From: a virus
Length of the DNA stretch: 64,000 nt
Strand: one strand, 5' to 3'
IMG/VR virus record: IMGVR_UViG_3300023276_001265
Positions 1,920-57,210 of the stretch are shown piece by piece; position 1 is the first letter of the stretch; each line of letters starts with the position of its first letter. The notes beneath the pieces are model-generated. The model was not told the origin of the DNA, did no database searches, and worked only from the letters and a program-made list of their open reading frames with translations. The position numbers and the translations under genes were made by a program.

Positions 1920-3611
1920 ATGGACATGCTAGTAGGAACCAACGACGACGGAAGTGACTTCACGGTCAAAGCCAGTGATCTGCTGACGCACGGCGTCATT
2001 CTAGGCCGCACCGGATCTGGTAAGACCGGAGCCACGGTCACCACTGTCGAGAACGCCGTCATGAGCGGTGCGTCGGCGATTATCCTCGACCCCAAGGGCG
2101 ACCTGACTAACCTCGCTCTGGTATTCCCCGACCTCGCCGCTGAGGATTTCGCTCCTTGGTCTGAGGAAGGCTCGGACTCTGAGAAGATCGCCGAGAAGGC
2201 TCAGAAAGAGCTTGGTCACCTTGCCCCTAACGTCCGTGTCTGGAAAGACGCGGCTGATGTCACGATCTACGCCCCTGGCAAGACCCACGGAGGCGGTAAG
2301 CCCATCAACGTCCTCGCCTCCTTCGGCGCTCCAACTGGAACATTTAACGATCAGTCCCTCCGAGACCGTGCCTCGGCTGTCGTGTCCTCGGTCCTGAGCG
2401 CAGTCGGACACGGCGCTGACCCTCTCACCGATCCGGCCAATGTCTTCATGACTGATGTCATGGTCAATTCTTGGAAGAACGGTAAAGGATTCCCAATGGA
2501 GGAATGGGCGACGACGCTCACTGACCCTCCTGCCGAGTTCCAAGTCATTGATGGACTTCCGATCAACGATTTCTTCCCCAAGAAGGATCGCCTAAAGATC
2601 GCACGTGCGGTCGTCGGCTTTCGTCGCCAGGCCACCAAGTGGCTGGACGGTGAGGCTCTGTCCATTGAGAGCTACATCGGTATCAACAAGCCAAAGGTCT
2701 CAGTCTTCACCATGCGCCACCTCAACGAGGGTGAGCGTAAGTTCTTCGCAGCAATGCTCCTGTCGGCAATCGTGGACTACATGTTCCGCGCTCCGGCCAG
2801 CAACAAGCTGAAGCTACTGGTCGTCCTTGACGAGGCCCGTGGCTACCTGCCTCCATACCCGCTCAACCCTCCGACCAAGAAGCCGATCTGCACCCTCCTG
2901 GCGCAGGCCCGTGCCCACGGCATCGGTATTCTGATCGGGACGCAGAACCCAAACGACCTGGACTACAAAGCCCTCACTAACGTCGGCACCTGGTTCCTGG
3001 GCAAGCTGCGTGAGCGTGACTGCGCCCGTGACCTCAAGCGTGAGCTCTCGGTCCGCAATGTTGATCGGGACATTCTGTCCACGGTTCCGCAGCAACACTT
3101 CCTGGTGCTCAAGAAAGACGGCACCCACAGTCTGGCCAAGATCCGCTGGGCCTACAGCTACCTCCGTGGACCGTTGAGCGGTCAGGAGCTTCTCCGCCTG
3201 GAGGACTCTGTCCAGACCTCCTTCAAGCCTGTCCAGACCTCCGTCAAGCCCGTCAAGCCCTCCTACAAGGCGTCGTCTGCAGCCGCTCAGGTGTTTGAGG
3301 GCAGCGGTGACGTTCGCATCAACTTCGTCCTGACCGATCGCAAGTCAGGAGGGTCTACGGTAGTCGTAGAGCATTCCATCAATGGCGGCGATAGCTGGAG
3401 GTCGTCTCGTATCAAGAACAAGTCCAAGAGTTACGGGTCAACCCCTTTCGGTCAGAGACATACGGTGGTGTGGAACACGATCAAGGACGTGGGCCGCAAG
3501 AACGTGACAGCGCTGGTGCGCCTGAAGATCAACGGTCAAATCTCTCAGCACTACTCGGTGTTCAAGGTGAACAACACGAGGATTAGCCGCTTCTCGTCGC
3601 TGTTCTCCTAA
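1920..3611 (+). CDS. HerA/FtsK-superfamily (DUF87-like) P-loop ATPase with beta-rich C-terminal domain
   Basis: THGVILGRTGSGKT (Walker A), ILDPKGD, LVVLDEA (Walker B), QARAHGIGILIGTQNP. Confidence 0.85.
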   Translation: MDMLVGTNDDGSDFTVKASDLLTHGVILGRTGSGKTGATVTTVENAVMSGASAIILDPKGDLTNLALVFPDLAAEDFAPWSEEGSDSEKIAEKAQKELGHLAPNVRVWKDAADVTIYAPGKTHGGGKPINVLASFGAPTGTFNDQSLRDRASAVVSSVLSAVGHGADPLTDPANVFMTDVMVNSWKNGKGFPMEEWATTLTDPPAEFQVIDGLPINDFFPKKDRLKIARAVVGFRRQATKWLDGEALSIESYIGINKPKVSVFTMRHLNEGERKFFAAMLLSAIVDYMFRAPASNKLKLLVVLDEARGYLPPYPLNPPTKKPICTLLAQARAHGIGILIGTQNPNDLDYKALTNVGTWFLGKLRERDCARDLKRELSVRNVDRDILSTVPQQHFLVLKKDGTHSLAKIRWAYSYLRGPLSGQELLRLEDSVQTSFKPVQTSVKPVKPSYKASSAAAQVFEGSGDVRINFVLTDRKSGGSTVVVEHSINGGDSWRSSRIKNKSKSYGSTPFGQRHTVVWNTIKDVGRKNVTALVRLKINGQISQHYSVFKVNNTRISRFSSLFS

Positions 3612-3656
3612 TGTTCAACATCTAAGGTAAAAGGTTCTAGGTGATAGGAGGATCAA

Positions 3657-6600
3657 ATGTCAGACGCACGACTAAGGGACGCTGAGAGACGCTGGAGCGA
3701 GACCGGGGCGGACGATGATCTGTCAGTCCTCGTAATCGCCAGGAAACGTGCAGGACTTGAGATCCCTTATGGGATGCGAGTCCGCATGACGAAGCTGTTC
3801 TCAACCTTAGGTAAAAACAAGCGTGGCCTGGAAGAGTTCCGCCACAAGACCTCGGGAATGATCTTCGTGATGATTCCTGCTGGCGAGTTCATGATGGGCC
3901 GAAACGATGAGGACACTCCCCAGCAGAGGAGAGAGTTCGCTGTTGGAGTGCACCAAGTGCTGGATGTCGCGCCCCAGCAGAGGAGAGAGTTCGCTGAACC
4001 GTTCCTGGTCGCCAAGTATCCATGGACAGGGCGTGAGTGGTATCGGACCACAGGGGAGTTCCCCTCTCATTTCCCCACACGGGCGATGATGGACGAGTGG
4101 ATGCCAGTCGCAATCCCAGAAGACGCCACCTACGGCCCTGAAATCCGCATGGAGGCTATCGACAGCGATGGAAAGAGATGGGGAGACCACCCCGTCGAGT
4201 CCGTCTCGTGGGACCGTTGTCGCCAAGTCGAGGATCACATCAATAGGGTTGACTTCGTCCGTCAGTTCAATGCCCGATTCCTCCTCAAGAATGACCTAAA
4301 GGAACACGCATGGGTCAATTGGGTCGATTACACCCACGGACTCGCTTCAATCAATCTATCTCCAGCGAAGCTCAGACCTGATGGAGAGGTGGTGCTTCCA
4401 CACTTCGCAGGACTGGTCTTCACTGATGAGGTCGAGAGCCTCTACCAGGGCTGGCTCTGGAACGAGGACAACGAGCGTGCTGGCTTCCAGCTGCCGACCG
4501 AGTCGATGTGGGAATATGCGGCCCGTGCAGGGACAACAACTCGCTACCCCAACGGGGACACGGACGAGGACCTAGCGAAGATCGCCTGGTTCGGCGGTGA
4601 CTGGGATGATGGTCACAAGGCTGTCGGCCTGAAAGATGACAACAACTGGGGCCTCCACGATAACTGCGGCAACGTGTTCGAGTGGACTCGCTGCATGTGG
4701 CGTCAAACGGTCGAGGAAAACCCAGTGAACGGCTTCCTCGCAGTAGGGGAAGAATGCTCGGACCCTACGGTTACGGAATACCTCTGCGATTCATCGATCC
4801 AGGAACGTGTATCCGTACAATTAGCCGCTCCGCCCTTACCTCCTTCGAACGAGGATGGCAGTCAATCCAGCAACAACCCACAGACCTCGGAGTCCGACCC
4901 TGCTGGAGAGCAAAGTAGCCCGGACCCTACCCCAGTTTCACCCTCAGAGGGGGTGACTGGATCGTCGGAGCAGGGGTCCTCTGCATCAAGAGGCACACCG
5001 ACTACGCCCCTCACTACTACTGGGGAACCCGATCAGCCTGGAGGGGAAGGTGAACCTGGTTTTTTCGGCCAGACCCCTGCGGAGAGATCAAGCTCTCCGA
5101 CGGAGGGCTCTGCAACATCAGTAGTGCCCCAGGGGGCGGTCGATACTTCGACCAGATCTACGGGCGCTACGCAAGGTTCAGAATCCTCAAGTCCGTCTGC
5201 TGGACTCACAGCCTCAGCTGGAGAGAGCGGACCGCAAGTTTCAGGGACCTCCTCTGGAGAACCAGTCATCAGTCCCACGTCAGCACCCGACCAGTCTGGC
5301 GAGGACGATAGCTCGGATTTTACCCAGACAGCATCTTCGTCGGAAGCGATGGGTGGGCAGACCCAGCCTGCTCCGTCGACTTCAGTAGGGGATGCTACGA
5401 CCGAGACCAATACGACCCCAGCGGCGGGGTTAGGCCAACTTGGAGAGGACGGTAGCCCGGATTTTTCACAAACTTCGTCTATTCAGACGACCCCGACATC
5501 GCCTACTTCCAGAGAAACCTCCACAGGTCCCTCTTCGGACCAGTCCCAGACAGGTGGGTCACACGCGGAGGAGACTTCCACGACGCAGGACCCAACCGCC
5601 GGGGCGTCGAGCCTAGTAGTCGATGCTACGCAGGTGGACACCGACTCTCCTGGCGAGGACGATAGCTCGGACCCTACGCATGGCTCGGATACGTCCCTGA
5701 GTCGAGATTCTACTCCGCAGGAGTCGGAACTTACTACCAGCCCCCACGGGACGAATACCGATGCGGATGCAACGCCTGTAACCCAGGAGGACACCGGGCC
5801 GCAGGCACCAGGATCTTCTGGAGAGGGCGTTAGCTCGGATTTTCCTCAAGGTGGACAGTCCACCGAGATCCAACCTTCCCCCCAAACGAGTTCGCCCTCA
5901 GAGGGCGGCAAGGGTCTTCTTTCCTCGATTCAGGGTTCATCTACGCCTCCTACGTCCCACTTGAGGTCAGCGCGACCTACGCAGAAAACGGCCGATACAT
6001 CAAAGGAAACATCTGGGACACCTTGGAAGGAGAAGAGAACATCTTCTCCACAGGAGAACGATCTTCCAGACAGCGATACATCATCCTCGGCTCACAAGGA
6101 CTCCGACCGGCCTGGAGGTGCCGGTGACGCTGTCCCTTTAGCCTTAAGGAGCGTGTCGACCAGCTCCTCGGAACACTCACCATCGACAACAGCGCCTTCG
6201 AGGACAACTTCAAGTATCAAGCCAAGTATGGAGACGCCTTCCGGCAGGTCTACGCAGCAGACGACATCAGGCTCACCCAACAGTTCTACACCGACAACTG
6301 GATGGCCGAGGGAACAGTCATCATCAAGGGAGGACATTGGAACTCGTCCGCAAGTCAACTCACCATCGCCTGGGACGACCCAACCGACCCAGACGACTCC
6401 TACGGGGAGTGGGGACTCAGACCAGCCTGGAGAATTCGGTAGTGCTGTCCCTTTAGCCTTGCGGAGCGAGTCATTCCGCTCCTCAGAGACGGCTTCCTCC
6501 GAGAACGACTCGCCGAGGTCAACGACTATCTCACCGAGGTCAGGCACAGAGCTTTCTCCTCCCATGACACATCAAGAGTCATCGTCGTCCGAAGCTCGGG

Positions 6601-8255
6601 GCAACACATGCCGATCGCCGCAGGACCTTGCCCCAGACATCGATCCGGAGGTGCCAGGGCTGAATGCACCTCACCCAGAGCAGCCTGGCGGAGCCGTTAG
6701 CTCGGATTTTCCTCAAGGGTCGCAGCCATGTCCCAGCGCATCTTTGATCTCACAAGACGACAAGACGATAGCTGGCTCGTCGTCAGTCCAGAGATCGCAA
6801 GAGAGCTTAGACACGTCTACGACCACAGAGCCGACAGAATGCTCAGAGGAGGCTTCTTCAACTCCGACACCAGAGACCAGTTCGAGGATGGATGGGACAT
6901 CTGGTCTCTCGATCCCGATCTTCCCGACCGTATCGCTGGGCTCAGGCTCACCTGGCGAGCGAGGTGATTCGGATTTTCCCCCGTCGCCTTCATTGGAAGA
7001 GGGGGTGGAAAGACTGAGGTCCTCGGGCTTAACCTCTTCGCCTCCATCATTGATGTCGCAAATTTCGGATTCCCCAGACTCGACAAGGTCCTCAGAAACC
7101 ACGCCTGGTTCGACCTCCCAGAATTCAGCAGGTGGCGACAACACTCCTGCACAGATGGAGAGGACGACGGATTCAGAGCCTCCTGGAGAGGGCGGTGATT
7201 CGGATTTTCCGTTGACGACCCCCTCGCTCTCCTACGAGGAGGCGCCTGGGGCGCAGGATCCATCACCCCAATCGATGAACACCACCCATGGGTCGATGAC
7301 TGGGCGCTCGACCGGGATCTCCCAGACGAGACCGCAGGAGGGCGACCAGCCTGGAGAGGGAGGTGATTCGGATTTTCCCCAAGGGCCTTCCTCCACTACT
7401 ACGTTCCCCAGGACTCAGACACCTGGGAGGCCTGGGAGTGGACCGGCGGATCAGAGCTCATGTCAATCAGCCAACGAAGCAGAGTCCACATCAAGGGAGG
7501 AAGCTACTACTCCAACGCCGACACCACACCAAGCCCAACCGTCTGTAGCCGATCCTACGAATACACAGTCGCCACTGGAGCGGGGAGTTGGATCGGACTC
7601 CGATCAGCCTGGAGAGGGAGGTGATTCGGATTTTCCGTTGGGGAGTTCACTCGCTTCGACATCCCTTCCTTCAGTAACTTCTGGGCCACCACCGTCGCAT
7701 CCCGACTCCCCACTGGACCAACCATCATCGTCAGAGCCCCAAGCTGGCAGTGCGACACAGGAGACTGCCTTATCAGAGATCCTCGCTGGGCTGAGGAGCG
7801 AGATGACAACATCTCCCCAAGAGCGGCCTGGAGGTGCCGCAGACCCTGATACCTTTCCAGGTGGACTCGGACCGCATATTGATAAGTGGGCTCCTCTCCT
7901 CTCCGGCATTGATGAGACCTGGACCCGGACAGTCGCAGCAGCCATGCTCGAAAACGAATCAAGACATCTACAGCGTCTCCAGTCTGAGGTCGATGGAGAG
8001 GGCGTCGGCCCCTTTCTCCAATACGCCCTCCCTCTCATCAGACGGGCCAGTCCTCTCAACTTTCCCTACGTCCAGCCCATGCTCGGACCCATCGGAGGAA
8101 TGGCCTTCTACAGACCGGATCTCGCCCGTAGAAGAGACCCCATTGAGCGAGGAGGAAGTTGGTACGAGGACACCGGCGTTCTCGGACTTGATGAGAGAGG
8201 GGCTTCTGGTGCCATCAGCTCCAGAGGGCATCGACCTGCATGGCGCTCCCGGTAG
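3657..8255 (+). CDS. FGE-sulfatase (SUMF1/C-type-lectin fold) domain protein; zero-frame read-through product of a cassette array
   Basis: FVMIPAGEFMMG, HPVESVSW, FQLPTESMWEYAARAG, NNWGLHDNCGNVFEW; the closing RGGSW...GHRPAWR motif appears only about 1100 aa later; the intervening region is S/T/P/G-rich; GGAGG RBS. Confidence 0.9.
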   Translation: MSDARLRDAERRWSETGADDDLSVLVIARKRAGLEIPYGMRVRMTKLFSTLGKNKRGLEEFRHKTSGMIFVMIPAGEFMMGRNDEDTPQQRREFAVGVHQVLDVAPQQRREFAEPFLVAKYPWTGREWYRTTGEFPSHFPTRAMMDEWMPVAIPEDATYGPEIRMEAIDSDGKRWGDHPVESVSWDRCRQVEDHINRVDFVRQFNARFLLKNDLKEHAWVNWVDYTHGLASINLSPAKLRPDGEVVLPHFAGLVFTDEVESLYQGWLWNEDNERAGFQLPTESMWEYAARAGTTTRYPNGDTDEDLAKIAWFGGDWDDGHKAVGLKDDNNWGLHDNCGNVFEWTRCMWRQTVEENPVNGFLAVGEECSDPTVTEYLCDSSIQERVSVQLAAPPLPPSNEDGSQSSNNPQTSESDPAGEQSSPDPTPVSPSEGVTGSSEQGSSASRGTPTTPLTTTGEPDQPGGEGEPGFFGQTPAERSSSPTEGSATSVVPQGAVDTSTRSTGATQGSESSSPSAGLTASAGESGPQVSGTSSGEPVISPTSAPDQSGEDDSSDFTQTASSSEAMGGQTQPAPSTSVGDATTETNTTPAAGLGQLGEDGSPDFSQTSSIQTTPTSPTSRETSTGPSSDQSQTGGSHAEETSTTQDPTAGASSLVVDATQVDTDSPGEDDSSDPTHGSDTSLSRDSTPQESELTTSPHGTNTDADATPVTQEDTGPQAPGSSGEGVSSDFPQGGQSTEIQPSPQTSSPSEGGKGLLSSIQGSSTPPTSHLRSARPTQKTADTSKETSGTPWKEKRTSSPQENDLPDSDTSSSAHKDSDRPGGAGDAVPLALRSVSTSSSEHSPSTTAPSRTTSSIKPSMETPSGRSTQQTTSGSPNSSTPTTGWPREQSSSREDIGTRPQVNSPSPGTTQPTQTTPTGSGDSDQPGEFGSAVPLALRSESFRSSETASSENDSPRSTTISPRSGTELSPPMTHQESSSSEARGNTCRSPQDLAPDIDPEVPGLNAPHPEQPGGAVSSDFPQGSQPCPSASLISQDDKTIAGSSSVQRSQESLDTSTTTEPTECSEEASSTPTPETSSRMDGTSGLSIPIFPTVSLGSGSPGERGDSDFPPSPSLEEGVERLRSSGLTSSPPSLMSQISDSPDSTRSSETTPGSTSQNSAGGDNTPAQMERTTDSEPPGEGGDSDFPLTTPSLSYEEAPGAQDPSPQSMNTTHGSMTGRSTGISQTRPQEGDQPGEGGDSDFPQGPSSTTTFPRTQTPGRPGSGPADQSSCQSANEAESTSREEATTPTPTPHQAQPSVADPTNTQSPLERGVGSDSDQPGEGGDSDFPLGSSLASTSLPSVTSGPPPSHPDSPLDQPSSSEPQAGSATQETALSEILAGLRSEMTTSPQERPGGAADPDTFPGGLGPHIDKWAPLLSGIDETWTRTVAAAMLENESRHLQRLQSEVDGEGVGPFLQYALPLIRRASPLNFPYVQPMLGPIGGMAFYRPDLARRRDPIERGGSWYEDTGVLGLDERGASGAISSRGHRPAWRSR
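3918..3996 (+). repeat. 25-bp exact direct repeat (PQQRREFA x2)
   Basis: CCCCAGCAGAGGAGAGAGTTCGCTG at 3918-3942 and 3972-3996. Confidence 0.9.
4760..7849 (+). other. array of 14 alternative FGE C-terminal cassettes in the -1 frame
   Basis: Heptamer-to-stop coordinates: 4760-4918, 4922-5053, 5060-5311, 5315-5455, 5459-5665, 5669-5833, 5837-6127, 6134-6442, 6449-6700, 6704-6967, 6971-7198, 7202-7366, 7370-7624, 7628-7849. All end R-x-x-W-R-x-(R/K) (e.g. GLRPAWRIR*, GVRPTWRGR*, GFRASWRGR*); many have an RGGxW-like motif (LRGGDW, IKGGHW, LRGGAW, IKGGSY, TRGGDF, LRGGFF). Confidence 0.9.
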
Positions 8256-8565
8256 CATCGTCGTCAATGTACACGACGAGGTGCTTGTTGGACTTCCTGC
8301 GGACACCATGATCGGAGTTAGCATCAGTGGTCACATTCATCACCTCACCAATCAGTTCCGGCTAACCTCATTTGACTTCGTAGCTAGTCCTCCAGTGGCT
8401 GGGGCTTATCCCCGACTCGTCCCTCCCAGAACATCGCTACACACTTCATTAGGTGGAACCTGGTTTGAGGTCTTCCACAGAAGGTCAATTCCACGTTCTA
8501 GCTCTGGGGCTTTTCCAGTCTGTCGCAACCAATGGTCGACCCGGCCTTGCTGGCGTTCACGTTAA
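8254..8565 (+). other. 16th FGE C-terminal cassette, in the +1 frame
   Basis: 3' part of ORF 7834-8565: SLGGTWF...WSTRPCWRSR*, the same terminal signature as the other cassettes. Confidence 0.75.
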
Positions 8566-8596
8566 ATCTGATATCACGATGCGCCACAAAAAAGAC

Positions 8597-8624
8597 TTGC
8601 AATCCCCTCATGTCCCCCTAGACT
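8597..8624 (+). promoter_or_regulatory. sigma70-like promoter of the replication operon
   Basis: TTGCAA-N16-TAGACT, with an upstream A-tract, before 8688. Confidence 0.45.
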
Positions 8625-8687
8625 CACTCACCAGGCGAGACCATTTTAATCGCCTCACCCCACTAAGCATCACCTCCGAGGTTCACC

Positions 8688-8981
8688 ATGACACGCCGTG
8701 AGCAGGGATACCTCCGTGTCCCGAGACAACTTGTGAGCGACAAAAGCATGAAGTCCTCGGACCTCCGTGTATTCGCTGTGCTCATGGACATGTGCACTAC
8801 AGCTGACGAGATAGAAGATGGACTAGATGCCATCACTGAACACACTGGACTGACCAAGCGGACGGTCTGCGAGTGTTTGTCTAGGCTTGAAGGGCGTGGG
8901 TTCATTACGCGAGAGAGTCGTCGCGGACCTTACACTGGGCTCATCACCATTAGCGATGCGGCGGCAGACCTCAGTGCATAA
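8688..8981 (+). CDS. winged helix-turn-helix protein
   Basis: AITEHTGLTKRTVCECLSRLEGRGFITR; GAGG RBS. Confidence 0.8.
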   Translation: MTRREQGYLRVPRQLVSDKSMKSSDLRVFAVLMDMCTTADEIEDGLDAITEHTGLTKRTVCECLSRLEGRGFITRESRRGPYTGLITISDAAADLSA

Positions 8982-8991
8982 GCGTAAAAGC

Positions 8992-9312
8992 ATGCCTCAG
9001 GTAGTAGACCAGGTCGTTAAGGACGCAGACCTCAACGCATCTACGAAGATCATCTACCTCTACATCGCAGCCGCGTATCGTCTCAACTACTACACAAATC
9101 CCCACAACTGCGGCTCCTACGAAATCCTCGCAGAGGCTACCAACTTCAGCGTGGCTACCGTAAGGCGTGCCCTAAAGCAGCTAGTTGAAGTGGGACTACT
9201 CTCTATCGACTCAAGCTCCGACAAATTCGAGACGTGGCTCCCAGTGAAGATCCTTCACCTTGACGGTGGGCTGAACCTGCTACGGCAAATCGCCAACGCA
9301 GGTGGTGCGTGA
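8992..9312 (+). CDS. winged helix-turn-helix protein
   Basis: SYEILAEATNFSVATVRRALKQLVEVGLL; start uncertain (frame open from 8887). Confidence 0.75.
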   Translation: MPQVVDQVVKDADLNASTKIIYLYIAAAYRLNYYTNPHNCGSYEILAEATNFSVATVRRALKQLVEVGLLSIDSSSDKFETWLPVKILHLDGGLNLLRQIANAGGA

Positions 9313-31764: not shown

Positions 31765-31820
31765 ATGGTCGGGCAAAAACGATATCAGCGGCAGCGGTAG
31801 AATGGTTGAGAGGAGGCCGG

Positions 31821-34800
31821 GTGGCAAAGAAGAAGAAGAAGCTGAAGCCGAAGTACAAGGATGAGCTATGGGATCCAACTGACCTTTGCGAGATCAGCCC
31901 AGAGGAGCTTATTGAAGCCGTAAAGGCTGAGGGTGCATATAGTTACGATCTTGAGACAACTGGGCTGTCCCCCCGCAAAGACCGAATAGACGGCATTGCC
32001 TTCTACGTCCCCAACGAGAAGAATCCAGAGCGTAAGCCGATCCGGGCGTGGTTCCCGTTCGCTGATGGAACAATGGACCACACTGTCGAAGGTGGCAAGG
32101 TAGTCGCGCTCCGGGCGACACTAGACCAGTTCGACACAATGACTCGCCTACGTCCAATTTGGGGACTCAAAGACGTAATCGCGATCCGGCACAACGGGAT
32201 CTTCGATGACGCATTCATCTACCTATCAAGCGGTCTCGATGAAAACATCATTGTCGAGAACATCATCGCCGACAGTATGCTCGCCGACTATGTCGCCGAC
32301 GAACGACGTAAGCGTTATGGATTGAAATTGCGGGTCGAACAGGTGTTCGGGCACAAGATGACCTCATATAAGGAGGCTGCGGCCGGACAGGCCTCGTTCG
32401 CGTTCGCCATGAAGAAGCCCCTTGGCGTCTACGCTTGTGACGATACGGCGTGGACCTACCGTCTCTGGCGCTGGGCCATGGAGTCGATCCGGAAACAGGA
32501 TCCTCCGCGAGAGCACAAGGATCAGTGGTGTTCTCCGCTAGACGATACGCCTGGAATCTACAGCGACCTGGAGAAGGTCTTCTGGAAGATTGAAATGAGA
32601 ATCCAGCGGATCCTCATGGAGATGGAGATCACTGGCTGCTTCATCGATTGGGAGTGGTTGGTCGTCGTCCAAGAACGGCTGCAGAAGCAGAAGAAGACAA
32701 TTGAGGAGGAGATCAAGGAGGAATACGGTTGGATGCCGAAGATTCGGTCGCCAAAGCAGACCTCAGACTTCCTCTACAACCCGGTCGACAAAGGTGGCAT
32801 CGGGCTCCCGACCCAAGGTGTCGATTACAACGCGGTCACGGACCAATACGCGACCGGTGACAAGGCGATTAAGCACAGGGCGAGGGAATTCCCCGTCGTT
32901 GCAAAGATCCTCAAATACAGGTCCCTAGGCGTTGTCGAGAGCTCGTTCTGTCAGAAGCTAATCGGACTGGCCCAGGCAGAGACCAGGATCTACGCACGCT
33001 TCAGGCAGACCGGCACGGTCATCGGTCGTCTGAGTTGTCTTTCCGGAATGTCAATGCTCTCTATACGCCTGAATGGGGCGAATCTAAGGCGTTTAGTCAA
33101 ACTCTCAGAACTTGGTCAGTTTATCGGATCTGATGTTAGGATCATCACTCATAAGGGTCGTGAGCGCCGCGTGTTGAATCTGTTCAACAAGGGGCCAGGC
33201 CTGATGTTTGAGGTGGTGGCGGATGACGGCAGCAAAATCAGATGCACAAGAGACCACAAATTTTTCACCAACTCCGGGTGGCGTGCTCTCAAGGACATCA
33301 AACGAGGGGACAGACTGCTTCGAGCCGAGGTATGTGAGGCTCAGGAAGCCGATAAGAGGCAGGCGGTGGGTGCTGGATCGACCGTCGTTCTTCAAGGTGT
33401 TCGTGGACGACAAGAGGCCGGTTTACAAGAAGTCGAAAATCTATGGTCTGACGGATGGGATTGCACTCACGTGCAAGGCGATCTACGGCTGGGAGATCGA
33501 TGTGTTCCGAGGCCGTTCGAGGCGACGTCCGGACTTAGACGAGATACTTCCACTTGCACCGACATGGGTGCGACGAGACAAGTGCAAAGGCTTCATACTC
33601 TCCAGGGAGTCGTTCAAGGAGATCTTCGTAGACAGCGACCTGACGCAGGAGAAGGCGAAGAAGACCTACGGGATATCTCACCAGGCCATGATCCGGGCCG
33701 TGAAGACTTACAAGGAGTTCCACGACCCACTGGCGATGAAGCACGGACGACTCCTGAGCGCGGCCAAACGGAAGGAGGAGGCGTTCTTTCCAAAGTCGGC
33801 TTTGGTGGAGGAGATGTCAGAGGGGAGATCCCCTCAAGAGATCGCGGCCAAGTTCGGCGTGGGGGAGTCGATTATTTTGATGGACATGTACCACCACGGA
33901 GTATCCGCGAACCCTCACGGAACCATGTCGTGGGTGAGCCGATTGACGGACAGCGAGTACTTGGCACTGGTCGCACTGAACCCACGAATAGGAGAGCTTC
34001 CAACGGACCCGAAGATGGCTTTCACCGAGCTGGTGGAGGCCTATCAGAGGCTGATGCAACTAGCCCACTCGGTCAAGCAGAGCGGATCGATCATGGGGGC
34101 GTTGATCGAGAGGGGGACGATCGAGAAGGATCATCTAACGTTCGCTTCAAATCGGGCGGAGATGAGGCTGTCCCGTGCGCTGACGGCGGTTGGAATCCAG
34201 CATCGGCGACTATTCCATTTCTACAAGAACTGGCAGGCCGACTTCGCCTGGATAGATCAGAAACTACTGGTCGAGGTAGATGGCGCGTGGCACCAGAAGT
34301 GTGCTGCTACCAAGGATCGGGATCAGAAGAAGACAAAGAAGGCGAAGGAGCTTGGTTACCGAGTAGTGAGGTTCACCACCAAGCAGGTCGACAAGAACCT
34401 TCCTACGGTGATTCGGGAGATCGCGTTCGAACTTGGACACGAGTTACCAGCATCACTCCAGTCAGCGTCGAAGATGTCTGGGACCTCACCGTAGAGGGGG
34501 ATCACAGTTATCTAGCTCACGGGTTTGTCAACAAAAACAGTGCGGACCCCGTCAACCTGATGAACCAGCCACGAGAAAAGGACCTGATCCGCAAGGCGTT
34601 CTGCGCTCACCTTGAAGATGACTACGACGATGATCGCAACGAGCTAACGCTGATCGATGCTGACTACGGGCAAATGGAACTGCGCATGGCAGCTCACCTC
34701 GCCCGTGAGAAGAACATGATCGAGGTCTTCTCGGCGGTTGATGGGTGTGAGGCTGGTCCCGACGGTGGTCCGTGCGAGCGATACACGTTCCACGAGTGCT

Positions 34801-36743
34801 TCGCCTGTCACACGTGCCAGCCTCCAATTGAGCTCCCTGACGGCACCATGTCCTGCATTAAGTGCGGGGCTACAGGAGGAGACATTGAACATCAGAAGCG
34901 GTGTCGTCACGTAGATCCTCACCAGCGAACGTCAGAGGACGTAGGCGTCCCTCGAAACCCTCTCGCTAAGTGTTTAGACGGGTCAACGCTGCTTCTGGGC
35001 ATGCAGCCCGGTAATGGCAAGTGTTGGATTCAACCAACGACGATTGAGGACTTGGTGGGCGATATCGAGCCCAACGAACATCGACACGTGCCTGTGACCA
35101 CCGTGACGACATCTGAGGGGCTGGCCACGGCTCACACTGCGCTCAAGCGTCACAACAAGCAGACGAAGATCATCATTACTAGACGCGCTATTGTGATTGC
35201 TACCGTCGATCATAGGTTCCAGGTGCTCGGAGAGCATGGAGCGTTAGACCCTAACACGCCGAGTTATGTGCACGTTCCTGGGCGCAGCCTTGTAGAGGCC
35301 CAAAACCTCGAAAAGGGTATGAAGCTCCCCTTCATCGATATGGGGCATGAACAATCGATGGACCCCATGTGGCACCAGACAGGTCGTCATGGTGCGCTGG
35401 AGATCAATCCGTTCACCAAGGAGGTCCAGGAGGGAGGACCGGCCACCATCGTCCTTGATGAGAAGTGGGCCTACTTTGCAGGAATCTTCGCCGGGGACGG
35501 CTGCGCGTCCGGAAACTCGTGTTCCATCTCTCACGGACATACGCCGGAATACAAGGAGTGGCGGGACACAGTTCGAGAGGCTTGTGATGCCGTAGGGCTT
35601 CCCACCTCAATGCGAGGGGACAAGCGTCAGACAGCGATCGGCTCACGCGTCGTTCGTCGCTACCTCTCTGGTCTGAGGATCTGTGAGGAACTCGGCAAGG
35701 GTGACCAGGGCGCGAAGATCATGCGTGTCCCGCCGTGGGTCCTCAGTGGCGGACCGAAGATGATGTGGTCCTACATCGCTGGCATCTTCGATACCGATGG
35801 AACGGTCGGTAAAAAGAAGGCTGGGACGGCCAGCTTCACTACGAAGTCCCCCGAATTCGCCGGTCAAATGGCCTTCATGCTTCGCTGGCTTGGGATGCCT
35901 GTCCTCTGCCAGCCAGGGTTCAACAAGACCTACGAGCGGTGGTACTACACGGTTCATGTTTTGGGAGAGGGTATTGAGCGGTTCGCTCGACACTGCCCAA
36001 TGCGGCTCAAGGAGAAGGTTGACCGGCTCCACGAGAGGGCCGCAACTATCAAGCGTAAGTGTGCACCTACTAACGATGAGGTGATTGCCGTCATTGATGG
36101 CGGCGAACGGACGGTCTACGACTTCCAGATCGACACGGAGGACCACCTCTACAATCAGGGCGGCTTGGTCGGTCACAATAATGCTAATTTCGGACTTTTG
36201 TACAGAATGGGTGCGCCAAAGTTCTGCGTGTATGCAGGGTTGTTTGATGAGGACGGCAAGCCCCGTGTCGGCTACGGACAAGAGTTGATCGAGAAGTGGC
36301 ACGCGGCTTACCCTGGCATCGCTGCTTGGCACGAGCGGGTTCTTCATCAGCTGTGCGTCGACAACTACATCGCCTACACCATTACGAGACGCAGACGTCG
36401 CCTCGACATTGAGTGGAAGAAGAACGATTACCGGGCAGGAACCCAGGCCATTCAGTTCAAGGTTTCAGGCAGCTGCCAGGACCTCATCAAGCTGGCCATG
36501 ATCAAGCTCTTCGAGGTGCGGAATCAAAAGGTCGCGAACACGCCTCCAGCTGAGTCGCGGCTCTGGAAGAAGTTCCGCTTCATGATCCAGGTCCACGACG
36601 AGTTGATCTTCGAAGGTCCGAAGGCGATGAAAGAGGAGCTCTGCCTCCTGGTCAAGGAGTGCATGGAGGGCGCAGCCAAGGGCATGCGTATTCCCTTCGT
36701 CGCTGATGCGCGGGCCGGGAGGACCTGGGATGAGCTACACTAG
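31821..36743 (+). CDS. polA: family A DNA polymerase with 3'-5' exonuclease and two inteins
   Basis: DLETTG, HNGIFD, YACDD; GTVIGRLS|S, motif A DADYGQMELR, motif B AK|NANFGLLY, motif C QVHDE; AGGAGG RBS before GTG at 31821. Confidence 0.95.
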   Translation: MAKKKKKLKPKYKDELWDPTDLCEISPEELIEAVKAEGAYSYDLETTGLSPRKDRIDGIAFYVPNEKNPERKPIRAWFPFADGTMDHTVEGGKVVALRATLDQFDTMTRLRPIWGLKDVIAIRHNGIFDDAFIYLSSGLDENIIVENIIADSMLADYVADERRKRYGLKLRVEQVFGHKMTSYKEAAAGQASFAFAMKKPLGVYACDDTAWTYRLWRWAMESIRKQDPPREHKDQWCSPLDDTPGIYSDLEKVFWKIEMRIQRILMEMEITGCFIDWEWLVVVQERLQKQKKTIEEEIKEEYGWMPKIRSPKQTSDFLYNPVDKGGIGLPTQGVDYNAVTDQYATGDKAIKHRAREFPVVAKILKYRSLGVVESSFCQKLIGLAQAETRIYARFRQTGTVIGRLSCLSGMSMLSIRLNGANLRRLVKLSELGQFIGSDVRIITHKGRERRVLNLFNKGPGLMFEVVADDGSKIRCTRDHKFFTNSGWRALKDIKRGDRLLRAEVCEAQEADKRQAVGAGSTVVLQGVRGRQEAGLQEVENLWSDGWDCTHVQGDLRLGDRCVPRPFEATSGLRRDTSTCTDMGATRQVQRLHTLQGVVQGDLRRQRPDAGEGEEDLRDISPGHDPGREDLQGVPRPTGDEARTTPERGQTEGGGVLSKVGFGGGDVRGEIPSRDRGQVRRGGVDYFDGHVPPRSIREPSRNHVVGEPIDGQRVLGTGRTEPTNRRASNGPEDGFHRAGGGLSEADATSPLGQAERIDHGGVDREGDDREGSSNVRFKSGGDEAVPCADGGWNPASATIPFLQELAGRLRLDRSETTGRGRWRVAPEVCCYQGSGSEEDKEGEGAWLPSSEVHHQAGRQEPSYGDSGDRVRTWTRVTSITPVSVEDVWDLTVEGDHSYLAHGFVNKNSADPVNLMNQPREKDLIRKAFCAHLEDDYDDDRNELTLIDADYGQMELRMAAHLAREKNMIEVFSAVDGCEAGPDGGPCERYTFHECFACHTCQPPIELPDGTMSCIKCGATGGDIEHQKRCRHVDPHQRTSEDVGVPRNPLAKCLDGSTLLLGMQPGNGKCWIQPTTIEDLVGDIEPNEHRHVPVTTVTTSEGLATAHTALKRHNKQTKIIITRRAIVIATVDHRFQVLGEHGALDPNTPSYVHVPGRSLVEAQNLEKGMKLPFIDMGHEQSMDPMWHQTGRHGALEINPFTKEVQEGGPATIVLDEKWAYFAGIFAGDGCASGNSCSISHGHTPEYKEWRDTVREACDAVGLPTSMRGDKRQTAIGSRVVRRYLSGLRICEELGKGDQGAKIMRVPPWVLSGGPKMMWSYIAGIFDTDGTVGKKKAGTASFTTKSPEFAGQMAFMLRWLGMPVLCQPGFNKTYERWYYTVHVLGEGIERFARHCPMRLKEKVDRLHERAATIKRKCAPTNDEVIAVIDGGERTVYDFQIDTEDHLYNQGGLVGHNNANFGLLYRMGAPKFCVYAGLFDEDGKPRVGYGQELIEKWHAAYPGIAAWHERVLHQLCVDNYIAYTITRRRRRLDIEWKKNDYRAGTQAIQFKVSGSCQDLIKLAMIKLFEVRNQKVANTPPAESRLWKKFRFMIQVHDELIFEGPKAMKEELCLLVKECMEGAAKGMRIPFVADARAGRTWDELH
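33036..34538 (+). mobile_element. intein 1 in polymerase (501 aa)
   Basis: Begins CLSG after GRLS; block B CTRDHKF; ends VWDLTVEGDHSYLAHGFVNKN|S (Lys at the penultimate position). Confidence 0.9.
33334..34494 (+). CDS. DUF559/Vsr-like endonuclease nested in the +1 frame of intein 1
   Basis: SNRAEMRL...ADFAWIDQKLLVEVDGAWH...DQKK..KAKELGYRVVRF, HTH-like segments upstream; frame open from 33208, start uncertain. Confidence 0.8.
   Translation: MRLRKPIRGRRWVLDRPSFFKVFVDDKRPVYKKSKIYGLTDGIALTCKAIYGWEIDVFRGRSRRRPDLDEILPLAPTWVRRDKCKGFILSRESFKEIFVDSDLTQEKAKKTYGISHQAMIRAVKTYKEFHDPLAMKHGRLLSAAKRKEEAFFPKSALVEEMSEGRSPQEIAAKFGVGESIILMDMYHHGVSANPHGTMSWVSRLTDSEYLALVALNPRIGELPTDPKMAFTELVEAYQRLMQLAHSVKQSGSIMGALIERGTIEKDHLTFASNRAEMRLSRALTAVGIQHRRLFHFYKNWQADFAWIDQKLLVEVDGAWHQKCAATKDRDQKKTKKAKELGYRVVRFTTKQVDKNLPTVIREIAFELGHELPASLQSASKMSGTSP
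34971..36179 (+). mobile_element. intein 2 in polymerase with LAGLIDADG endonuclease (403 aa)
   Basis: CLDG..., ATVDHRF, FAGIFAGDG and IAGIFDTDG, VYDFQI...GLVGHN. Confidence 0.9.
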
Positions 36744-40217: not shown

Positions 40218-40565
40218 ATGACTGGTTACTGTGTCGTCGAACATTGCGAGCGTTTGGGTTATGCACGCGGGTATTGTAAACGCCACTACATGCAGATTTT
40301 GAGGCACGGACACCTGACGCTGGAATCAGAGCGGGGTGGACCTAAGGAATGCGATGCCACTGGCTGCACTTCAGGGCAGGCCAGCGGAGGTCACTGCAGA
40401 AAGCACGCCCGACAGATCAAACTCTACGGGGAACTGCGGCCAGATCGTGAATACATGACCGGTAAGAAGCTGTGCGCAGAGCTAGATTGCGATACGAAGG
40501 TTAGAGCTCGTGGTCTGTGCGCGAAGCACTACACGAAGCACCGTAGGGCCGGGACTCTCCCTTAG
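40218..40565 (+). CDS. protein with three CxxxxC...GxCxxH repeats
   Basis: Repeat type often found N-terminal to phage HNH nucleases. Confidence 0.6.
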   Translation: MTGYCVVEHCERLGYARGYCKRHYMQILRHGHLTLESERGGPKECDATGCTSGQASGGHCRKHARQIKLYGELRPDREYMTGKKLCAELDCDTKVRARGLCAKHYTKHRRAGTLP

Positions 40566-41419
40566 AGGAAGAGATAGCAGGCGATGCCGATCGCCGACCC
40601 GATGACTGACGAGGCGACCATCATGAGGCCCACTCGGAGCTTCTTGGGCTCGACTACTGGCCGTTCTGCCCAGTGCAGGGCAAGGTCTGCCAGAGGAATG
40701 CTGATGTGCTTACCTTTGTCGGTCCGCACGATCCCACAGAACACATCGTGCTCCGAGCCATCATCCAGCTTGATCTTCTTCCTGGCGTAGTCCACGAGGG
40801 TGTATGGGCCCTCGTTGGTGGCCAGTGAGTAGACTAGGTCGCTAATGGCCGGGGGCTGGCGGTCGGAGAGCTTCACGTCCTCCATTTGTTCTGGGTTCTC
40901 AGCGTGGTCCGCATCGATTTCATCATCTGTAAGGCCGAACACGGCCTTTTTGATGTATCTGTCGGAGACGAATGGCCGGATCTTTTCTGCGAAGTCCTGT
41001 CTCATCTTCTCGGCAATATCGCCCTCGATGGCGGTGTGGCCTCCGGTCGTCACCGTCACAGCGCCGGTCGAAGCATCGTAGAGCACGTTGTTGGTTCCGG
41101 CGGCGAGCGCCTGGATGGCTGGAAAGGTGGACTGGCCGACCTTGAAGGCAGCCTTGATGTCACGGCCGAATCCACTGAACACTGCGGTGCAGCCACAGCG
41201 GCACCCGTATTTGTATCGTTCGTCGTCATCTAGCGAATCAAGGCAGTTCTTTGTCGAACCGTCTGCAGCCTTGTAGTTCACTTGACCGTTTGCGAATGTC
41301 TCCGTTCCCATATCCTTGTATACCCGAAACGACGGAGTTCCGCTTGAGGTCGTAGAAGTTACGGGAGAGATAAGGTGCCCTGAAGCGCCATTCTCTGTAG
41401 AATGATCCTGATGCTCCAT
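40562..41419 (-). CDS. hypothetical protein with C-terminal membrane anchor
   Basis: 285 aa; hydrophobic C-terminus. Confidence 0.65.
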   Translation of the reverse strand: MEHQDHSTENGASGHLISPVTSTTSSGTPSFRVYKDMGTETFANGQVNYKAADGSTKNCLDSLDDDERYKYGCRCGCTAVFSGFGRDIKAAFKVGQSTFPAIQALAAGTNNVLYDASTGAVTVTTGGHTAIEGDIAEKMRQDFAEKIRPFVSDRYIKKAVFGLTDDEIDADHAENPEQMEDVKLSDRQPPAISDLVYSLATNEGPYTLVDYARKKIKLDDGSEHDVFCGIVRTDKGKHISIPLADLALHWAERPVVEPKKLRVGLMMVASSVIGSAIGIACYLFL

Positions 41420-44005: not shown

Positions 44006-46285
44006 ATGGCACTTCGCGACGATGCGCTAAACTACCTGCGCCAGGTATTCGGCCGTGAACGCGCCGAGCGTGATCGGGCTGAATCTCCCTCGGCCGAGGC
44101 CGAGAAGCACATCCCGTCATCCATCTTCTCGGTATGGGGCCGAGAAGACGTCGGCGGACTACTCAGCGTCTCGCAGAACCTGATGGACAGGTATGCAGAT
44201 TATGAGCAGATGGATGATTATCCGGACATCAACTGTCTCACTGCAGATACTACGATTTACGTGGTTGAAGACTCCATTATCAAGCCCACTAGGATCCACG
44301 ACCTAGCTGCTCACGGCGGTGGCCCCAAGATCCTGGCCTACGACACAGAGAAGGACAAGCTCGTCGTAGTGGCGTCTGAGAATCCTCGCATTTCTGGCGA
44401 TAAGCAGGAGGTGGTTGAGGTCGGGTTTAGCAATGGTGAGAAAATCAAGTGCACCCCTGGGCACAAGTTCCTCACGGTCGAGCACGATTACATCAATGCC
44501 TCTGATCTAGTCGAGGGAACGGTTGTGGTCTCTTGTTGGTCTGGGTTTGACCCAACAGGAATGACCGCCTTTCTGCACTCAACATCAGGCCGATTGAAGG
44601 TGACCCAGGCCGCGATTCCGGCTGGGGTCGAAGACGTCTACGACGTCACAACTAAGACCCACAACTTCATCGCTAATGGGATTGTTGTCCATAACAGCGC
44701 CCACCACTACTTCACAAACGATGCGACCCAGCCGGATATTGACACCGGAAAAACCGTTTGGGTCCATTCTAGCGACGAAGCTATCAAGAGCATGTCGGAC
44801 GTGCTGCTCAACAAGCGGCTACGAATTGAAGACGATATCTGGTCCATGGTCTACACGACCGTGAAGATGGGCAATAACTACGAGGAGGTGCTGATCACTG
44901 ATAACGGCGTTGTCGGCCTCAACTCTCTTCCCTGCCCCACCATGCGCCGTGTCGAGCAGTCCAATGGCTCGATCATTGGTTACGTCCAGGACATCACTGG
45001 GAAGTTCACGCAGGACGCCTCGGACCTTCGCGGGATGCTGGCCGGTCAGGCTAAGGTCCCGGACCACGTCGCCCTGTTCGAGGAGTGGCAAGTCCTACAT
45101 ACGCGCCTTCGTGGCACGGCCCGCAGAACTCCATACGGGTTCGGTGTGGCTGATGGAGCTCGCTGGATCTGGAAGAGACTGGTTCTTCTCGAAGACTCGA
45201 TGCTCATCTACAAGCTGACCCGAGCTCCAGCCCGGTTCGCCTTCTACATCGACGTCACCGATATTCCATCTGACAAGGTGGAGTCCTTCCTACGCAAAGC
45301 CAAGCAAGACCTGCGGAAGCAGAAACTTGTTAACCCGAGGACCCAGCGCCTCGACATGCGTATGAATCCGATGGACAACCTTCAGGACTTCTTCATCGCG
45401 GTCCGCGAAAATCGCGAGCTAGCCCGTGTAGAGGTTCTCCAAGGCCCTGACTATCAGGCGACCGAGGATGTGGAGTACTTCCAGCGGAAGCTACACGGCG
45501 TCCTGAAGATCCCCAGGAACTATCTAGGGCAAGACGACGGCATCCCAGCCCGATCGATCCTCTCTTACGAGGATGTGCGGTCCGCACGCGTCACGATGGG
45601 AATCCAGCGCGAGGTCAGGAACAGCATTCGTCGTCTGATTCAGATCGATCTTGCGGCCCGAGGGATCAACCCCTTCAGGCAAGACCTTCAGGTGATGATG
45701 ACGGTCCCGTCCGGGATCTATGAGCTGGCGCACAACGAGATCAAGAACGCGAGAGCTGACTTCGCAACGCGAGTCCAGCCGTTTGTCTCAATGCGCTATA
45801 TCCAGGAGAAGATTCTCAAACTGACCGGCGATCAGATAGAGCGGATCGAGAAGGAGCGGGAAGAGGATCAAAAGAAGGAAGCTGCTCAGCAACAGGCTAT
45901 GGGCGGAGGTGATGATGGCGGTGGTGGCGGCGCTCCTGCTGCTGATGGTTCTCCGCCAGATGACGCTCCAATGCACCCAGGAAACGCTGAGATCGGCCCA
46001 CCACCGGGCTCTGGGGGTCGACCAGACAGTAAGTCGGAGTGGAAGTCTTACGATAGGGCGCGGCGCATTGAGGAAAAACGTGATCGCATGTCCCGGCAGC
46101 GTGATCAAGAGATTCAAGACACAATGCACAAGGTCATTGTCGGTAATAAGCAGATGGCCGCACAGCTCGCCCATCAACAGCAATTCTTCCGCGAGTTCAA
46201 GCACGCCGCATTCTCCCGGAACGGGAACGGCGGTCTGATCTCAGCCCCTCAGGGCGGCGGTCATCGACGACGTCGCATTAAGTGA
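44006..46285 (+). CDS. portal protein (T4 gp20-like) with mini-intein
   Basis: YADYEQMDDYPDI, LLEDSMLIYKLTRAPARFAFYIDV, DFFI, EDVEYFQRKLHGVLKIP. Confidence 0.92.
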   Translation: MALRDDALNYLRQVFGRERAERDRAESPSAEAEKHIPSSIFSVWGREDVGGLLSVSQNLMDRYADYEQMDDYPDINCLTADTTIYVVEDSIIKPTRIHDLAAHGGGPKILAYDTEKDKLVVVASENPRISGDKQEVVEVGFSNGEKIKCTPGHKFLTVEHDYINASDLVEGTVVVSCWSGFDPTGMTAFLHSTSGRLKVTQAAIPAGVEDVYDVTTKTHNFIANGIVVHNSAHHYFTNDATQPDIDTGKTVWVHSSDEAIKSMSDVLLNKRLRIEDDIWSMVYTTVKMGNNYEEVLITDNGVVGLNSLPCPTMRRVEQSNGSIIGYVQDITGKFTQDASDLRGMLAGQAKVPDHVALFEEWQVLHTRLRGTARRTPYGFGVADGARWIWKRLVLLEDSMLIYKLTRAPARFAFYIDVTDIPSDKVESFLRKAKQDLRKQKLVNPRTQRLDMRMNPMDNLQDFFIAVRENRELARVEVLQGPDYQATEDVEYFQRKLHGVLKIPRNYLGQDDGIPARSILSYEDVRSARVTMGIQREVRNSIRRLIQIDLAARGINPFRQDLQVMMTVPSGIYELAHNEIKNARADFATRVQPFVSMRYIQEKILKLTGDQIERIEKEREEDQKKEAAQQQAMGGGDDGGGGGAPAADGSPPDDAPMHPGNAEIGPPPGSGGRPDSKSEWKSYDRARRIEEKRDRMSRQRDQEIQDTMHKVIVGNKQMAAQLAHQQQFFREFKHAAFSRNGNGGLISAPQGGGHRRRRIK
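44234..44695 (+). mobile_element. mini-intein in portal (154 aa)
   Basis: CLTADT..., CTPGHKF, VYDVTTKTHNFIANGIVVHN|S. Confidence 0.92.
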
Positions 46286-46974: not shown

Positions 46975-47100
46975 GGAAAAATAGCTTTTAGTCAACTGCG
47001 GCCAAAACCGCTTGCCCGATGACGAGCTTCAAGGCCGGTTAACAGCAGCCCACGGCCTGGTGACCGTAAATTTGTTCCTGACATTGAGCGCGGCATTCTT
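46971..47100 (-). ncRNA. putative omegaRNA with guide
   Basis: IS605-like right end (GCAAGC...CAGTTGAC, ending at 46991) downstream of tnpB; the guide would be about 46990-46971. Confidence 0.4.
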
Positions 47101-48144
47101 GCTCATCGGACTTTCGTTGCCACACGAATCGCAGAGGAAGGTGTGTTTTGTGATGCTCCCAGAAGCTCCACAAAGCGAGCACCTCTTCTCGTTACCGGAT
47201 ACGTTCACGTAATAAACCGGTATCGCCGCAGCCGCAGCCTTCTCTTCAATCCTACGACGAAGCACTTCATAGAAGTGCGGCCTCATCGATGGCTTGCTTC
47301 TTTTCCTCTTCGAAGGTGGAGGGATGCGAAGGTCCTCGATGACGAGGATTGATCCGCTTCCAACCCACTCAACGAGTCGGTTAGCTGCTGCGTGGCAAAA
47401 AGTCCTAGTTCGCATGTGACGCCGTCTGCTTAGCCGTTTGAGGACTCGACGCACAGAACGCGTCTCAAGTCCATCTGCCTTACGCACAGCCAGTCGCCGC
47501 TCAAGTCTTCTCTTTGTTTTTCGGCTTGTCTCCTCCATTACATTCTGAGCAACGGTGACGATTCGGAGAGATTTCCCCTCGGCGCTTACCGCTGCTACTT
47601 CATTCTTACTCCCTACTGCAACGCCAGCAGGAAGGGTTCCTTCTCGTTTTGATTCTTTAAGAGTCACGGACACGGTCGCTACGAGTCGTCCCCTTTTAAG
47701 GGAGACCGCGAGTGTGTCGAAGGACTTCACGTTTTTATAGTCAGCCTCGAACCGGGCTGGAATGCTGCAAGGTATGTCCTTACGGCCCGCAATTGTCCAA
47801 ATTCTGATCGTCTCTTTACGGGGTGGGCAGGCATCGCGCTTTGCCTTGCCGATCAAGAATAGGGCGCGTGGCTTACTGAAGTGAATCGGCCCATATATCC
47901 TCCGGTTTCTCCTCCGAGCGCGTGAGTATTCAGATGCCACCGATCGAATAGCAGTGCATGTGAGCTGAGATTTCAGAGAGCCTTTCACTTTTGCGTAGCT
48001 GAGCTGATGCATATCTACTGCGGAAAGCGCGGTTCCGTCTTCAAACGCAATCTCAGACACGCGCTCTTGGATGAGTCTGAATGACTCAATTGTTGCCATA
48101 AGATCAGCGTCGTTGGCAATCCTAAGTGGAAGCACTTTCTGCAT
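47029..48144 (-). CDS. tnpB: TnpB-family protein, predicted nuclease-dead
   Basis: TnpB layout with VIEDL and CxxC..CxxC; RuvC-I reads GVAVG (no Asp) and RuvC-III reads MSKNAA (no Asp); no tnpA nearby. Confidence 0.85.
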   Translation of the reverse strand: MQKVLPLRIANDADLMATIESFRLIQERVSEIAFEDGTALSAVDMHQLSYAKVKGSLKSQLTCTAIRSVASEYSRARRRNRRIYGPIHFSKPRALFLIGKAKRDACPPRKETIRIWTIAGRKDIPCSIPARFEADYKNVKSFDTLAVSLKRGRLVATVSVTLKESKREGTLPAGVAVGSKNEVAAVSAEGKSLRIVTVAQNVMEETSRKTKRRLERRLAVRKADGLETRSVRRVLKRLSRRRHMRTRTFCHAAANRLVEWVGSGSILVIEDLRIPPPSKRKRSKPSMRPHFYEVLRRRIEEKAAAAAIPVYYVNVSGNEKRCSLCGASGSITKHTFLCDSCGNESPMSKNAALNVRNKFTVTRPWAAVNRP

Positions 48145-57031: not shown

Positions 57032-57210
57032 TGGCTGTAACATTTGATTTAGGTAACGGCACTAGTGCCCATGTTGAGGATAACGCACACCTAATCGATG
57101 TGCTTGGTAAGGGTATGGTCGAGGCGCAAAACGTCGTGCAGGGTGACAAAATCTGCAATGTTGCAGGCCAGCCTCATAACGAAGTCCTGTCTGCTCCGGT
57201 GGTCGTCTAA
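57031..57210 (+). CDS. hypothetical protein
   Basis: TAATG coupling on both sides. Confidence 0.6.
   Translation: MAVTFDLGNGTSAHVEDNAHLIDVLGKGMVEAQNVVQGDKICNVAGQPHNEVLSAPVVV

Follow-up and report, generated by a model that had tools for sequence, protein, structure and literature searches.

In the 64,000-nucleotide stretch of phage DNA analyzed here (the window), a short coding segment within a lectin-fold gene carries, as judged by profile comparisons, a genuine though diverged copy of the helix that is best conserved in the phage portal protein. The segment, cassette 5, lies in the -1 frame of that gene. We give about even odds (a probability near 0.5) to the reading that it is a functional alternative C-terminal module, accessed by frameshifting, that presents the portal-helix copy on a lectin-fold scaffold, probably as mimicry.

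The lectin-fold gene and its cassette array

The zero-frame product of the gene contains the N-terminal and central strands of the FGE fold. The FGE-sulfatase profile (Pfam) is covered only at positions 5-208 of 255 and, because the match stops there, the last strands of the domain are missing from the zero frame. From about position 4760 the -1 frame holds 14 back-to-back segments, with the stop codon of each directly after a motif ending in W-R-x-R. In all, the array comprises about 16 alternative C-terminal tails for the lectin-like protein. The features of this region are:

3657-8255, plus strand: FGE/C-type-lectin-fold gene, 1,532 codons, zero frame
3657-4762, plus strand: N-terminal part of this gene, zero frame; Pfam FGE-sulfatase (PF03781), E 5.6e-19
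4760-5462, plus strand: Ser/Thr/Pro-rich zero-frame read-through of cassettes 1-4; frame open, zero-frame pN/pS 0.94
5453-5455, plus strand: TAG ending cassette 4 in the -1 frame, read from the sequence
5456-5665, plus strand: cassette 5, stop to stop in the -1 frame of gene 3657-8255; 69 codons plus TAG
5483-5575, plus strand: portal-like segment of cassette 5 (residues 10-40, from hhalign), containing the 13-mer at 5495-5533
5555-5662, plus strand: FGE-type terminal strands of cassette 5 (RGG-aromatic strand, loop, and closing motif ending W-R-G-R)

Direct repeats of 35-47 nt are found at the cassette boundaries, so that every cassette is flanked, and the spacing between boundary repeats is a multiple of 3 (e.g., 909 nt). 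The neighborhood of the array consists of early and replication genes, not head genes. The architecture suggests that the lectin-fold body is a binding scaffold rather than an enzyme.

We identified 2,438 homologues of the lectin-fold body. Close relatives occur on more than a dozen metagenomic phage contigs, always 3' of a gene for a HerA-like ATPase. Common to all relatives is the layout, in which the body and the last cassette lie in the zero frame and the stop-terminated cassettes between them one base behind. In L002-L005, which are more distant relatives, each cassette is a short canonical FGE C-terminus beginning at the Gly-Pro of the fold and, because these stand in the same layout, we take a cassette to be an FGE C-terminal module. 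The cassettes of the window and of its nearer relatives bear inserts between the Gly-Pro start and the RGG strand. Cassette number and content vary among relatives, from 4 to about 17, with gains and losses of single cassettes between close lineages. One relative, L001, has inteins in DnaB and in a ResIII helicase.

The 3' end of the array has features of its own. Cassette 16 (8257-8565) is in the +1 frame, past the zero-frame stop. The +1 frame is open from 7807, and the last two cassettes repeat the layout in which a cassette frame is paired with a frame that stays open one base ahead. The zero-frame default ending (7866-8255) and the zero-frame tails of L006-L010 and L013 resemble the N-terminal part of T4-type major capsid proteins; a Pfam scan of the tail core (7866-8252) gave no match. 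Cassette 3 (5054-5311) and its orthologues in L007, L009, L010, L013 and L014 share a Pro-Cys-Gly-Glu ... Cys-Asn-Leu pattern, which resembles the active-site motif of ribonucleotide reductases. Cassettes of this type have no Pfam match, and no ribonucleotide reductase gene was identified in the window. A virion protein with a Laminin_G_3 domain (57210-59420) receives weak blastp matches from cassettes 13, 15, 6 and 14 (best E 0.004).

Cassette 5 lacks an in-frame ATG, GTG or TTG; with no start codon of its own, it is ruled out as an independent small gene. A custom HMM of the FGE C-terminus, run over 1,496 six-frame segments, ranked cassette 8 first and cassette 5 second, the latter only with E 0.59; E-values from the canonical FGE C-terminus HMM are weak for single cassettes. 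Pfam gave no match to the 69-residue peptide of cassette 5 alone. AlphaFold2, given the small alignment of the cassette 5 family, predicted a helix at residues 13-27, which coincides with the portal-like motif; with pLDDT of about 70, the model is confident for the helix only. A look-up in the ESM Atlas returned no score of 0.9 or above, and the single-sequence AlphaFold2 model of the relative P0002 had a pLDDT of 35.

The portal helix and its copy

The window encodes a portal protein of the T4 gp20 family that is at most 30% identical to the portal of any cultured phage. The features of this gene are:

44006-46285, plus strand: portal gene, T4 gp20 family; Pfam Portal_T4, E 1.4e-48
44267-44695, plus strand: intein in the portal (residues 88-230); Intein_splicing, E 5e-13
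45455-45541, plus strand: portal residues 484-512, stem helix and tunnel-loop entry, the segment that cassette 5 resembles

The portal segment aligns to T4 gp20 residues 359-380. In T4 gp20 the stem region is made up of two stretches, 255-278 and 359-377, the latter containing stem helix alpha7, and the DNA channel is gated by the tunnel loop (374-398); the copied helix is an inter-subunit, channel-lining element (PMC4493910). Mapping the motif onto the portal structure, as the first-pass annotation had proposed, thus places it on stem helix alpha7 and the start of the tunnel loop.

In an ORF of 285 residues on the minus strand (40565-41419), a stretch of about 44 residues matches the portal-family crown region (clade portal HMM, E 1e-7, profile positions 182-225), which makes this a second window gene with a portal piece. 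A TnpB/Cas12f-like ORF on the minus strand (47029-48144; TNB domain, E 1e-8) is located between the head genes and the tail sheath gene, and a DNA polymerase ORF of 1,645 residues (31806-36743) contains an internal HNH-like insert.

The first-pass annotation had noted that cassette 5 resembles the phage's own portal, and its coordinates, identity count and longest shared DNA run proved exact on re-examination. Residues 14-26 of cassette 5 (5495-5533, -1 frame) are identical to portal residues 488-500 (45467-45505) at 8 of 13 positions. The underlying DNA is identical at 25 of 39 nt, the longest common run being TACTTCCAG (9 nt), and cassette 5 has no DNA-level similarity to the portal gene of the window. 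That the likeness is kept at the protein level, as was also suggested, is borne out by conservation of the motif in orthologous cassettes from four phage lineages and by the pN/pS values of the overlapping frames reported below.

Within the window, however, the match is not rare, which was the ground on which the first-pass annotation had proposed that it be judged: 8.6-12% of shuffled cassette 5 sequences equal it. The chance tests used a crude window proteome of 75 proteins and 19.4 thousand residues. An identity of 8/13 was reached by 8.6% of shuffles against this proteome and by 0.4% against the portal only; a Smith-Waterman score at or above the observed 46 was reached by 12% and 1%, respectively. 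The blastp E-value of cassette 5 against the window proteome is 0.06 per query, with 16 cassettes, so that about one match this good is expected from the array; such matches were seen for two cassettes in the window alone. By all of these window-only tests (identity windows, Smith-Waterman, and blastp with shuffles) the match is at chance level.

The relatives give a different result. We identified orthologues of cassette 5 at L007:4779-4967 (74% identity), L014:707-892, L015:561-746 (identical to the L007 version) and L010:3508-3768. All four retain the motif, representing three phage lineages besides the window, and the L010 orthologue tracks the portal sequence for about nine more residues. 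The contigs with the other orthologues hold no portal, and the arrays of the portal-bearing contigs L006 and L011 hold no cassette 5. The portal reference was an alignment of 120 related portals, in which the segment resembled by cassette 5 is nearly invariant. Comparison of the four distinct cassette 5 sequences with this alignment (hhalign) gave P = 4.4e-6 and a probability of 87%, with P 0.78 for the reversed portal alignment as control. The match spans 29 columns with one 2-residue gap, pairing cassette residues 10-40 with portal residues 484-512, and the cassette orthologues and portals conserve the same columns. For single sequences, P was 1.3e-5 with the L010 cassette, 1.1e-4 with cassette 5 of the window and 0.015 with the L007 orthologue; it was at least 0.011 for each of the 94 cassettes outside the family.

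Profile searches lead to the same segment. The search set for a clade portal HMM (portal residues 400-640) comprised 97 cassettes and about 1,450 further six-frame segments, with 4,850 shuffled cassettes as decoys. Two cassettes, the L010 orthologue (16.0 bits, E 0.0018) and cassette 5 of the window (8.1 bits, E 0.46), match the same profile positions and outscore all 4,850 decoys (maximum 6.0 bits). Ranked above them are only two true portal-like segments, the portal itself and the minus-strand ORF at 40565-41419. Portal_T4 is the only Pfam match of the L010 orthologue (E 0.032 over 24,736 families, profile positions 285-307), and hhalign finds the conserved stem-helix motif of this profile (PF07230, positions about 285-308) in the cassette 5 family. 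The whole portal fold (clip, stem, wing and crown) was not found in cassette 5; with an aligned stretch of no more than about 29 residues, it does not qualify as a portal.

Could the 13-mer be an ordinary amphipathic helix that resembles the portal by chance? The window-only shuffles and the blastp E-value would allow it, and the L007 orthologue alone compares poorly with portals. Against chance stand the profile-profile P-value with its reversed control, the extension of the match to 29 columns by the orthologues, the coincidence of conserved columns, and the fact that the portal family is reached both by the only Pfam match and by the only match among 1.84 billion proteins. We regard chance as very improbable and largely refuted already. 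The likeness is accepted as real because of the orthologues and profile comparisons, and not because of rarity within the window.

The single match in those 1.84 billion representative proteins, obtained with the profile of the cassette 5 family, is P0284 (E 8.7e-4), a metagenomic protein of 239 residues, encoded on a 14.8 kb contig, that is not a portal. It consists of a coiled coil followed by three portal-derived pieces in a non-native order. The central piece matches Portal_T4 (Pfam, E 0.0026) at the same profile positions as the L010 orthologue, the portal of the window (blastp E 3e-7), and, more closely still, cassette 5 of the window, to which it is identical at 16 of 24 residues (tblastn over the whole window, E 4e-6). 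P0284 is the closest known copy of the motif, but it is without the FGE strands. L017, found together with P0284, was set aside as it matches only the coiled coil. None of the GenBank phages encodes the lectin-fold body or P0284.

These comparisons qualify the origin that had been proposed. The match itself stands on the family-level evidence, but it is not specific to the phage's own portal, since the nearest sequence to the motif is P0284 (16/24) rather than the resident portal (8/13). A recent loan from the portal of a related phage, the alternative source suggested in the first-pass annotation, does not hold: three typical residues of the cassette family are never found at those positions in the 120 related portals, and P0284 has the residues that separate the cassette family from portals. 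Each link in the chain that joins cassette 5, P0284 and the portal is significant; thus, we infer an old, separately evolving copy and not a recent loan from the resident portal.

Selection on the cassette frame and a putative route to it

Purifying selection acts on the cassette peptides but not on the zero-frame peptide. Seven orthologous cassettes were compared between the window and L007; their pN/pS is lowest in the cassette frame (0.44), rises to 0.94 in the zero frame and reaches 1.31 in the third (+1) frame. For cassette 5 the values are 0.51 in the cassette frame and 1.03 in the overlapping zero frame. A zero-frame peptide as the selected product is ruled out by its pN/pS of 0.94-1.03.

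The zero frame nevertheless remains open. Across the array (about 3.1-3.5 kb) it contains 0 stops, versus 20.1 expected and a minimum of 9 in 2,000 recodings, in which the cassette peptides were recoded with the codon usage of the window. Thus, passage of ribosomes, or at least an open frame, appears to be needed. No promoter-like sites were seen in 3300-9000. The candidate signals at the start of cassette 5 are:

5442-5449, plus strand: Shine-Dalgarno-like GGAGAGGA, read from the sequence, 13 nt before the TTT codon
5459-5465, plus strand: putative -1 slip site G_GAT_TTT in zero-frame phase, opening cassette 5; site read from the sequence, shift predicted

Cassettes start 3-6 nt past the preceding stop. 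An in-phase homotriplet codon (T-run or C-run) occurs within the first four codons of 77 of 91 cassettes (12 loci), versus a background of 18%, although the fold's Gly-Pro peptide motif is a confounder of this signal. A Shine-Dalgarno-like tetramer in the 29 nt upstream is likewise present in 77/91 cassettes from the 12 loci. Where the window has G_GAT_TTT, the orthologues of cassette 5 have G_GAC_CCT; the peptide differs and the slip-prone character is retained. The heptamer departs from the canonical X_XXY_YYZ form: re-pairing of GAU with GGA is poor, and perfect re-pairing is possible for the second tRNA only. Downstream of the slip site, RNA folding gives a weak signal in the window (z -2.2) and none in L007 (z 0.0). 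Given the open zero frame, the lack of a start codon and of a promoter, the slip-prone triplets and the Shine-Dalgarno-like tracts, serial -1 ribosomal frameshifting fits best, and cassette 5 would most likely be reached by a -1 shift at G_GAT_TTT.

We predict that expression proceeds as follows. The zero frame encodes the first four fifths of the fold and then runs open through the array; each cassette, one base behind, would supply the missing terminal strands and ends in a stop. A ribosome slipping by -1 on G_GAT_TTT, behind the Shine-Dalgarno-like tract, would make a product that consists of the lectin-fold body, a flexible linker of roughly 230 residues, and cassette 5. In this product, the stretch from the opening Gly-Phe to the RGG strand would include the roughly 29 residues that are a diverged copy of stem helix alpha7 and the first tunnel-loop residues.

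Possible roles and known systems

The portal-helix copy is old, common to other phages, and held by selection at the positions that portals conserve. If it is displayed on a stable scaffold, its most likely role is mimicry: the module would engage whatever normally recognizes that helix, candidate partners being a host sensor of core phage proteins (with the module as a decoy or sponge) or portal subunits. A recent preprint reports that the STAND sensors of bacteria recognize the greater part of the core phage proteome, with portal, capsid and polymerase A among the proteins detected (bioRxiv 10.64898/2026.01.04.697583), and a decoy role is conceivable for this reason. In a Pfam scan of 76 cassettes from seven loci, Gp23 (major capsid) was matched by 10 cassettes (best E 2.3e-6), and DNA_pol_A, Portal_T4 and FGE-sulfatase by one cassette each. 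Thus, cassette 5 is one case of modules that carry pieces of core phage proteins. Serial frameshifts might even yield a translationally multiplexed display library of about 16 lectin-fold proteins, each with a core-protein peptide and acting as decoys or sponges against host pattern-recognition immunity, a reading that we hold only tentatively and think unlikely.

Two other readings were considered. In one, the cassettes are untranslated donors, moved by recombination between the 35-47 nt repeats to an expressed position as in pilin and Vls systems, so that cassette 5 would be expressed only after rearrangement. Direct repeats around every cassette are what such a store would have, and the range of 4 to about 17 cassettes, with single gains and losses between close lineages, is compatible with it. 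A donor store, however, needs neither an open zero frame (0 stops versus 20 expected) nor an in-phase slip-prone triplet at cassette starts. Moreover, because the repeat spacing is a multiple of 3, deletion between repeats would leave the body and the cassette in different frames, and no recombinase was seen adjoining the array. We consider silent storage quite improbable.

The other reading is a role in assembly, in which the portal-like helix would dock on portal subunits in place of the neighbor's stem helix, and so either tether the body to proheads or poison the portal assembly of related competitors. It draws on the inter-subunit, channel-lining position of the copied helix in T4 gp20, on the conservation of portal-conserved positions by the cassette orthologues, on the many other cassettes that copy capsid-protein segments, and on the portal pieces in the minus-strand gene at 40565-41419 and in P0284. 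The placement of the array among early and replication genes instead of head genes speaks against it, as does the DNA polymerase A match of one cassette, since that enzyme is no partner in assembly. Overall we judge an assembly role unlikely. We give host-sensor mimicry and portal-assembly mimicry similar, modest odds, and either is a form of the preferred reading of cassette 5 as a frameshift-accessed module that presents a portal helix.

We found no description of such a cassette array in the literature searched, nor of a phage decoy built from trigger fragments. If translated as we infer, this would be the first gene known with a long series of frameshift sites that makes a protein family from one message, and also the first natural case of a scaffold on which fragments of a virus's own core proteins are displayed. 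Cassette 5 provides a clean, testable case, with a defined 29-residue copy of the best-conserved portal helix that is under selection in several uncultured phages. Its role, whichever way it falls, bears on how phages handle immunity aimed at proteins that they cannot change.

Several known systems share parts of this arrangement. Portals of the T4 gp20 family align with cassette 5 over about 29 residues (P 4e-6) and their conserved columns coincide, but cassette 5 is a fragment only, without clip, wing and crown, and is set within the C-terminus of a lectin fold. Bacterial immune systems that sense short motifs of core phage proteins (Lit with the Gol peptide of gp23, CapRel and the Avs families) have known triggers that include capsid, portal and DNA polymerase A, as in the cassettes (bioRxiv 10.64898/2026.01.04.697583). 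The DGR-diversified C-type-lectin/FGE-fold proteins (Mtd of Bordetella phage and TvpA of Treponema) belong to the same fold family, are phage-encoded, and vary in the C-terminal strands and loop. A DGR template/variable repeat pair was not identified in the window, where cassette 5 is touched by no repeats other than the 40-47 nt ones at its boundaries, and a regex scan of the window ORFs revealed no convincing reverse-transcriptase motif. Unlike DGR targets, which have point-mutated binding residues, the array has fixed alternative tail-ends in another frame with inserted protein pieces. The programmed -1 frameshifting of the lambda G/GT tail chaperone and of E. coli dnaX shares with the predicted mechanism an in-phase slip-prone site and a new C-terminal region in the -1 frame, and the upstream Shine-Dalgarno-like tract of the array resembles that of dnaX. 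However, lambda G/GT and dnaX have one site each, whereas the array has about 14 putative sites in series, each with its own short stop-terminated module and a non-canonical heptamer.
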